Positions 6,003-6,027 of a stretch of DNA of 10,033 nucleotides are shown here, one piece after another. A program made the translations under genes and the position numbers. Source of the DNA: a virus. Taxonomy: Duplodnaviria; Heunggongvirae; Uroviricota; Caudoviricetes. The notes under the pieces are model-generated. The model searched no databases. It was not told the origin of the DNA and saw only the letters and a program-made list of their open reading frames with translations. Within the stretch, counting starts at the first letter, position 1, and every line of letters starts with the position of its first letter. The stretch lies in the IMG/VR virus record IMGVR_UViG_2660238061_000002; one strand, 5' to 3'.

Positions 6003-6027
6003 GGCGTCAGAAATGACGCCTTTTTTA
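6003..6027 (+). terminator. Rho-independent terminator between J and lom (ggcgtca-gaaa-tgacgcc followed by tttttt)
   Basis: 7-bp stem, 4-nt loop, 6-T run, read directly from the sequence. Confidence 0.6.

Follow-up and report, generated by a model that had tools for sequence, protein, structure and literature searches.

Two junctions between the tail-tip gene J and lom occur in a 10,033-nt stretch of tailed-phage DNA (IMG/VR record IMGVR_UViG_2660238061_000002; hereafter the window, meaning the whole stretch that was analysed), and the hairpin that follows J has the loop GAAA in one of them and TTTC, its exact reverse complement, in the other. This raises the questions of whether a hairpin loop has been inverted in place, by which route, and with what effect on a structure that resembles a transcription terminator. 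The original prediction proposed that a terminator hairpin was flipped between two paralogous copies by intrastrand template switching, together with a compensatory change in one stem pair. Its hairpin sequences and coordinates agree base for base with our analysis, as do the reverse-complementary loops and the 30 identical nucleotides that lead from the T-tract to the lom ATG in both copies; the relationship between the copies and the proposed route require revision.

Two J-lom junctions on separate contigs

The window consists of short repeat contigs of a draft assembly placed end to end: it is interrupted by 16 N runs, each exactly 10 nt long, and so forms a chain of 17 pieces, most of which are fragments of prophage tail genes. 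No full-length counterpart was found among finished E. coli genomes because of this N-joined structure. The N runs lie at the following positions:

First eight runs: 505-514, 962-971, 1653-1662, 1858-1867, 2150-2159, 2463-2472, 2667-2676, 2899-2908
Last eight runs: 3220-3229, 5055-5064, 5365-5374, 6626-6635, 6867-6876, 8266-8275, 8873-8882, 10015-10024

Copy 1 of the junction is located within the piece 5375-6625 and copy 2 within the piece 8883-10014. The features of both copies and of the pieces between them are:

5375-5984, plus strand: 3′ end of J, copy 1 (PF12421 Ig_GpJ_C, E=1.7e-37; the piece starts at 5375; stop codon TGA at 5982-5984)
6002-6026, plus strand: predicted terminator hairpin, copy 1, GGGCGTCA-GAAA-TGACGCCT followed by T6 (unflipped GNRA loop, GTC/GAC stem allele; −13.0 kcal/mol)
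6027-6050, plus strand: lom leader of 24 nt with the Shine-Dalgarno sequence GAGAGG at 6040-6045 (same sequence in both copies by alignment)
6051-6625, plus strand: lom, copy 1, Ail/Lom outer-membrane beta-barrel (PF06316, E=1.5e-116; ATG at 6051; ends at residue 191, at the N run starting at 6626)
6636-6866, minus strand: fragment of phage minor tail protein U (PF06141), between copies 1 and 2
6877-8265, minus strand: fragment of an RHS-repeat protein with 9 repeats, between copies 1 and 2
8276-8872, plus strand: DUF5906 fragment, between copies 1 and 2
8883-9395, minus strand: lom, copy 2 (PF06316, E=1.2e-101; ATG at 9395; ends at residue 171, at the N run 8873-8882)
9420-9444, minus strand: predicted terminator hairpin, copy 2, GGGCGCCA-TTTC-TGGCGCCT followed by T6 (derived allele, 4-nt loop inverted in place; −14.2 kcal/mol)
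9446, minus strand: A→G substitution, 2 nt 5′ of the 8-pair hairpin and 3 nt 5′ of the perfect 7-bp arm
9464-10014, minus strand: 3′ end of J, copy 2 (PF12421, E=3.5e-40; stop codon at 9466-9464; J C-terminal haplotype unlike that of copy 1)

On the plus strand, the hairpin of copy 1 consists of GGCGTCA (6003-6009), the loop GAAA (6010-6013) and TGACGCC (6014-6020), with the T6 tract at 6021-6026; an additional G6002·T6021 pair lengthens the stem, so that the hairpin spans 6002-6021. Copy 2, read on the minus strand, has GGCGCCA (9443-9437), TTTC (9436-9433), TGGCGCC (9432-9426) and T6 (9425-9420), and here the additional pair is G9444·T9425, giving a hairpin from 9444 to 9425. Both lom copies match PF06316 above the curated cut-off, and their truncation is due to the N runs and not to mutation. 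The J fragment of copy 1 is annotated as gpJ in matching E. coli genomes, and that of copy 2 differs from gpJ of E. coli IAI1 by one substitution in the ~230 nt aligned at the end of the gene.

The tail protein U, RHS and DUF5906 pieces are multi-copy elements, typical of collapsed-repeat contigs. Given the 10-N runs and the unrelated fragments in between, copies 1 and 2 are therefore separate contigs and not neighbouring inverted paralogues, and their spacing of ~3.4 kb and inverted arrangement are artefacts; as the window consists of N-joined pieces, any synteny or repeat arrangement across the N runs is unreliable. Instead of a change between paralogous copies, the two contigs carry two alleles that are widespread in E. 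coli prophages, presumably two prophage alleles from one genome.

A predicted terminator at the end of J

Its anatomy and conservation support the J-lom hairpin as a predicted Rho-independent terminator after the tail-tip gene J of lambda-like prophages. The two hairpins were the two top matches of a terminator scan and are located 17-19 nt 3′ of the J stop codon and 30 nt 5′ of lom. Each copy folds into a stem of 8 pairs (5-6 of them G-C) with a 4-nt loop, within the range used to recognize intrinsic terminator stem-loops (about 5-14 bp with a loop of 3-8 nt). RNA folding, which had been suggested as a check, returned these 8-pair hairpins for both variants, and the energies of the hairpins in a nearest-neighbour model range from −13.0 to −15.1 kcal/mol. 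On the J sense strand, the stem is followed immediately by a T6 tract that is invariant across 12 distinct alleles, and neither copy has a T-tract after the stem on the opposite strand.

The pairing of this hairpin is conserved. Among 120 IMG/VR loci sampled via the downstream sequence alone, 116 have a fully paired hairpin. In the 12 distinct alleles, 94.8% of the cells of the alignment are paired (33-58% in slid registers), and three of the eight pairs are changed on both sides among lambdoid phage alleles (G-C/A-U, C-G/U-A and A-U/U-A); none of 500 shuffles attains these values. Together with the T-tract present on the J sense strand only, this anatomy and conserved pairing support an intrinsic terminator at the end of J. 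The argument that preserved pairing speaks for a functional terminator is thus borne out for the anatomy and for the pairs changed on both sides, and from these we infer that transcription probably terminates here in vivo. However, template switching that homogenizes the arms of a DNA palindrome can also yield paired changes (PMC5941160, PMC8794818), so that covariation is weaker proof of selection on the RNA here than for ordinary RNA helices.

Homologous and analogous structures are found at the same junction elsewhere. In the record of phage Ayreon, the homologous hairpin is labelled a terminator, and lambda has a different hairpin, CGTCCG-GGAA-CGGGCG followed by TTTTATTAT, at the same J-lom position. 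E. coli K-12 has no J-lom junction; in its Rac prophage, ynaA runs into lomR. An Rfam search of positions 5375-10014 yielded nothing relevant, the sole match being a chance hit to a lncRNA (E=0.075).

The surroundings of lom

In E. coli IAI1, a second terminator-like hairpin, AGCCCGCC-GGTTCA-GGCGGGCT followed by T5, is located after lom (segment 4702-4728). In the lom-less phage ev017, the T-tract of the J hairpin is joined directly to the tail-fibre leader TGTGGAGTGAATATG (segment 320-365), and in several other lom-less lambda-like phages the similarity to our query is lost where the T-tract ends or immediately ahead of that point. From the ev017 junction and the hairpin 3′ of lom, it appears that lom was inserted with its own 3′ terminator exactly behind the J terminator, and the two look like a cassette resembling a "moron" (PMC3594210). 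Although lom is reported to be expressed in lambda lysogens (PMC7067206), there are only 30 nt from the T-tract to its ATG, and no sigma-70-like promoter was detected upstream of it on the plus strand of either 5004-6050 in the window or 3500-5200 of the IAI1 segment.

Stem and loop alleles among prophages

To describe the hairpin family, 120 IMG/VR loci were collected with the 32 nt downstream of the hairpin as the only anchor, leaving the hairpin itself unconstrained. Their alleles are distributed as follows:

GGCGCCA / TGGCGCC, loop GAAA: 54 of 120 loci, the commonest allele
GGCGTCA / TGACGCC, loop GAAA: 24 of 120 loci, the allele of copy 1
GGCACCA / TGGTGCC, loop GAAA: 24 of 120 loci
GGCGTCA / TGACGCC, loop GGAA: 10 of 120 loci
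GGCGCCA / TGGCGCC, loop TTTC: 2 of 120 loci, the allele of copy 2
Remaining alleles: 6 of 120 loci, four of them with a mismatch or a shifted register

Targeted IMG/VR scans were then made for TTTC loops on any stem of the family and, separately, for any loop not beginning with G. The first recovered TTTC at 25 J-lom loci, every one with the GGCGCCA/TGGCGCC stem, and the second found only TTTC and the point mutant AAAA; overall, the loops seen are limited to GAAA, GGAA, AAAA, CAGG and TTTC. In addition, 5,426 complete E. coli genomes were queried with a 41-nt sequence for which every 28-nt seed must span the loop. This query replaced a 75-nt search whose counts by identity band are unreliable, as truncated local alignments also score 100%. 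The flipped allele was present at 245 places in 219 of the 5,426 genomes (~4%), all identical over 41/41 positions and amounting to 245 of about 12,600 E. coli J-lom junctions; as the IMG/VR contigs and RefSeq genomes partly share their sources, these numbers and those from IMG/VR are not wholly independent. When TTTC was sought on the GGCGTCA or GGCACCA stem, neither equivalent queries of the 5,426 E. coli genomes nor the IMG/VR scans gave a match, and TTCC, which would be the flip of the GGAA loop, was likewise absent from the IMG/VR scan.

GGCGTCA/TGACGCC and GGCACCA/TGGTGCC are old paired polymorphisms, and the loop flip is independent of them. Because TTTC occurs only on the commonest stem, copy 2 represents the commonest stem allele with a flipped loop and copy 1 merely another common allele, from which copy 2 does not descend. 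The stem pair described as compensatory, T-A in one copy and C-G in the other, does differ on both sides, but it is a separate, older polymorphism that is uncoordinated with the loop flip. A wider alignment of the region, the check suggested for the coordination of these differences, accordingly confirms the conserved pairing and separates the stem from the loop differences.

Some rarer variants were also seen. Stx2c phage Stx2c_JNE072859 (about 198-217 of its segment) has an A·C mismatch in the stem GGCACCA/TGGCGCC (−9.7 kcal/mol), as if two stem alleles had recombined. Search scores equal to that of Stx2c_JNE072859 were obtained for six further Stx2c and Stx1a phages, whose hairpins are known by score alone. 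In Stx1_499 (204-223 of its segment), the closing pair is swapped from A-U to U-A and the loop is CAGG. Finally, the element A7-11-GGCGCCATTTCTG(A/G)CGCC-T6+ on unrelated metagenomic phage contigs looks like a bidirectional terminator; these were chance pattern matches and not J-lom loci.

An unflipped sister allele and a single origin

The comparison that reveals the nature of the change is provided by E. coli WP2-W18-CRE-03 and 258E, which share the J 3′ haplotype of copy 2, including a rare C insertion (TTTTCATAAC), and carry the hairpin as ATATAC-GGGCGCCA-GAAA-TGGCGCC. Over about 305 nt, copy 2 differs from this sister by one SNP in J, the A→G substitution at window position 9446, and four of four loop bases. 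Each of the differing loop bases is the exact reverse-complement base, while the arms GGCGCCA/TGGCGCC and the length are unchanged. With two differences in ~305 flanking nt against four of four in the loop, the loop was therefore changed by one multinucleotide event and not by four substitutions, and the idea of a one-step reverse-complement flip is borne out by this unflipped sister and by the 245 E. coli places. That the loop acquired four separate point substitutions, or that the difference is an error of sequencing or assembly, is a bare possibility that this comparison effectively refutes, as do the lack of any intermediate loop in the IMG/VR scans and the identical allele in 219 independently finished genomes. 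Sequencing error, named at the outset as a possible refutation, is ruled out by the same exact matches and the 25 IMG/VR contigs.

The A→G substitution at 9446 accompanies the flip at 245 of 245 E. coli places and 25 of 25 IMG/VR loci. Neither the G with a GAAA loop nor a TTTC loop without the linked G was found in our searches, and there was no second origin or back-flip in the sample. From this perfect linkage it follows that the in-place inversion has a single origin and that no reversion took place in the sample. The flipped allele occurs with three variants of the J end and three of the lom start, a spread that recombination among mosaic prophages would be expected to produce.

The linked A→G itself may have hitch-hiked as a founder SNP, or the replication event that flipped the loop may have made a second error there. 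A larger in-place inversion was considered as its source and rejected: inversion about the centre of the hairpin would place an A, the complement of the T-tract, at this position and not a G.

Mechanism of the inversion

The mechanism most likely to have inverted the loop, judged by analogy with published cases, is an inter-strand template switch. The flip would have arisen on the J haplotype that still exists in unflipped form. While copying the first 7-bp arm, the nascent strand would have jumped to the complementary strand across the replication fork, copied arm, loop and arm there, and then returned. Such a double switch would turn the loop in place and leave the perfect arms unaltered, and the resulting allele would since have been passed on, with recombination carrying it onto a few variants of the neighbouring flanks. 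"Loop inversion only" in rRNA hairpins with perfect inverted-repeat arms (PMC8794818) and "spacer inversion" in yeast genes (PMC8604942) are documented results of inter-strand template switching. The arms of only 7 bp and the linked A→G, which an in-place inversion leaves unexplained, speak against this account.

Two variants of the idea were rejected. The downstream CAGAAAA as a non-local template source offers a 6-nt match, compared to 18 nt for inversion in place, and recurrent flipping is contradicted by the lack of flips on the GGCGTCA and GGCACCA stems and of TTCC loops.

An alternative that would leave the same product at the sequence level is microhomology-mediated exchange within the 7-bp arms, by double crossover or gene conversion, between oppositely oriented J-lom copies of one chromosome or in an extruded cruciform. 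Several J-lom junctions are present in many E. coli genomes, with a median of 2 and a maximum of 12, and the self-complementary GGCGCC allows the arms to pair in several registers. Yet 7-bp arms are far below the length required for RecA-dependent recombination, and although genomes with several copies are common, the roughly 12,600 junctions show a single origin, which leaves this route unlikely.

The hairpin might also be a DNA-level palindrome, acting as a mosaic-junction or recombination hotspot or as a protein-binding site, with the paired changes as by-products of arm homogenization. Template switching can create compensatory changes instantly, and the homology between lom-containing and lom-less phages stops at the end of the T-tract, as a junction hotspot might have it. 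We nevertheless consider this reading decidedly unlikely: the invariant T6 follows the stem on the J sense strand only, with no T-tract on the reverse strand, lambda retains at this position a hairpin and T-tract whose stem sequence is unrelated, and the second terminator-like hairpin after lom fits the punctuation of transcription units.

Very improbable is the intrastrand switch of the original prediction, which would require the growing strand to fold onto itself and use its own first arm as template. Fold-back priming would be helped by the perfect arms and the stable loop of 4 nt, and such events are well documented at E. coli quasi-palindromes. In the published models, however, synthesis on the normal template has passed the loop by the time the strand folds back, so that the loop is kept, and only an inter-strand switch inverts it in place (PMC8794818 Fig. 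1 and Discussion; PMC8604942 Fig. 3). An inter-strand switch is thus preferred over the fold-back route.

Surface proteins of the class to which lom belongs are often phase-variable. A programmed, reversible inversion switch controlling lom, itself a surface protein expressed in lysogens (PMC7067206), can nonetheless be dismissed as extremely improbable, since the 4-nt spacer and 7-bp arms are far too small for a recombinase synapse, the orientation is perfectly tied to the neighbouring SNP at 245 + 25 loci with no flipping back and forth, and no invertase gene is found beside J-lom in IAI1, where the neighbours are only gpJ, lom and a tail fibre gene; neither the segment size and nearby invertase nor the two orientations within one lineage that characterize invertons are seen here.

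Consequences for the hairpin

The flip is probably close to neutral. In the nearest-neighbour model it costs 0.9 kcal/mol (from −15.1 to −14.2 kcal/mol), and the flipped hairpin at −14.2 kcal/mol is still more stable than that of copy 1 (−13.0 kcal/mol) or lambda (−9.7 kcal/mol). It removes the GNRA loop and leaves the stem, the T-tract and the downstream leader untouched, and near-neutrality follows from these intact parts and the small loss in energy. In IAI1, which like E. coli HS carries the flipped allele, an intact lom is located downstream of it. As GAAA outnumbers UUUC about 99-fold in rRNA hairpins (PMC8794818), the neutrality of losing the GNRA loop is an assumption.

We give little credence to the opposite view that the flip is not neutral, with the UUUC loop and the linked A→G altering termination or the folding of the leader and hence read-through into lom in lysogens. 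If it were so, the effect could have aided the rise of the allele, which occurs on several flanking haplotypes, to about 4% of E. coli genomes. In a broader version of this view, the hairpin family could be used to gauge the rate of template switching at terminators, with one flip per roughly 12,600 surveyed copies.

Unflipped alleles contain CAGAAA twice in direct order, once as the end of the stem plus the loop and again 13 nt downstream in GCAGAAAAGC; the corresponding positions are 6008-6013 and 6031-6037 on the plus strand and 9438-9431 and 9414-9408 on the minus strand. In the flipped allele, TTTCTG is complementary to the downstream CAGAAA, and the predicted minimum-energy folds are unchanged.

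Taken as a whole, we consider it likely that the J-lom hairpin is a terminator, present in the window as two circulating alleles, and that the loop of one was inverted once, probably by an inter-strand switch and with a nearly neutral outcome. A terminator can apparently lose its GNRA loop and persist.

Comparison with known systems

The closest parallels are the spacer inversions of rRNA (PMC8794818) and yeast genes (PMC8604942). As at J-lom, the spacer is replaced by its exact reverse complement with its length kept and the arms unchanged, and a multinucleotide change on one branch is accompanied by an unflipped sister allele. The yeast arms are longer than 9 bp, in contrast to 7 bp at J-lom (8 with the G·T pair), and several yeast loci flip repeatedly, whereas the J-lom flip has a single origin and is unreverted (PMC8604942). 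The rRNA study deemed the inversion of a stable GNRA loop unlikely, yet at J-lom it is a GAAA loop that was inverted (PMC8794818). Unlike the rRNA and yeast cases, the J-lom element is a predicted intrinsic terminator of a phage.

Quasipalindrome template-switch mutations of E. coli and T4 share with J-lom the host, the short inverted repeats and a two-switch replication mechanism, as far as this work (Ripley 1982; Lovett laboratory) is represented where it is cited in PMC5941160 and PMC7202029. The classical cases described there turn imperfect arms into perfect ones, whereas at J-lom the arms had no mismatch to begin with and the change is confined to the loop.

The lambda hairpin (NC_001416, about 18,930-18,945) occupies the same place between the J stop codon and the lom ribosome-binding site and also has a GNRA loop, GGAA, and a T-rich tail. 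Its stem (CGTCCG/CGGGCG, −9.7 kcal/mol) is unrelated and shorter, and its leader differs, so that it is not alignable with the J-lom alleles described here.

These comparisons reveal no new mechanism or element, and the wider significance is small: the J-lom flip is an ordinary, well-rooted case of a known mutation class, real, inherited, rare and apparently harmless. Its value lies in being a clean natural hairpin-loop inversion in a predicted intrinsic terminator of a bacterium or phage, with an unflipped sister and a population frequency. In alignments of mosaic prophages the flip looks like four clustered substitutions, and the two copies illustrate that differences between two alleles sharing one genome need not be related events.

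Small hairpin-loop inversions were reportedly described in chloroplast non-coding DNA by Kelchner and Wendel in 1996. Such chloroplast inversions affect stem-loops downstream of genes, are turned in place and mimic several substitutions in alignments. They are also notoriously recurrent (homoplasious), in contrast to the J-lom flip with its single origin among about 12,600 E. coli junctions.
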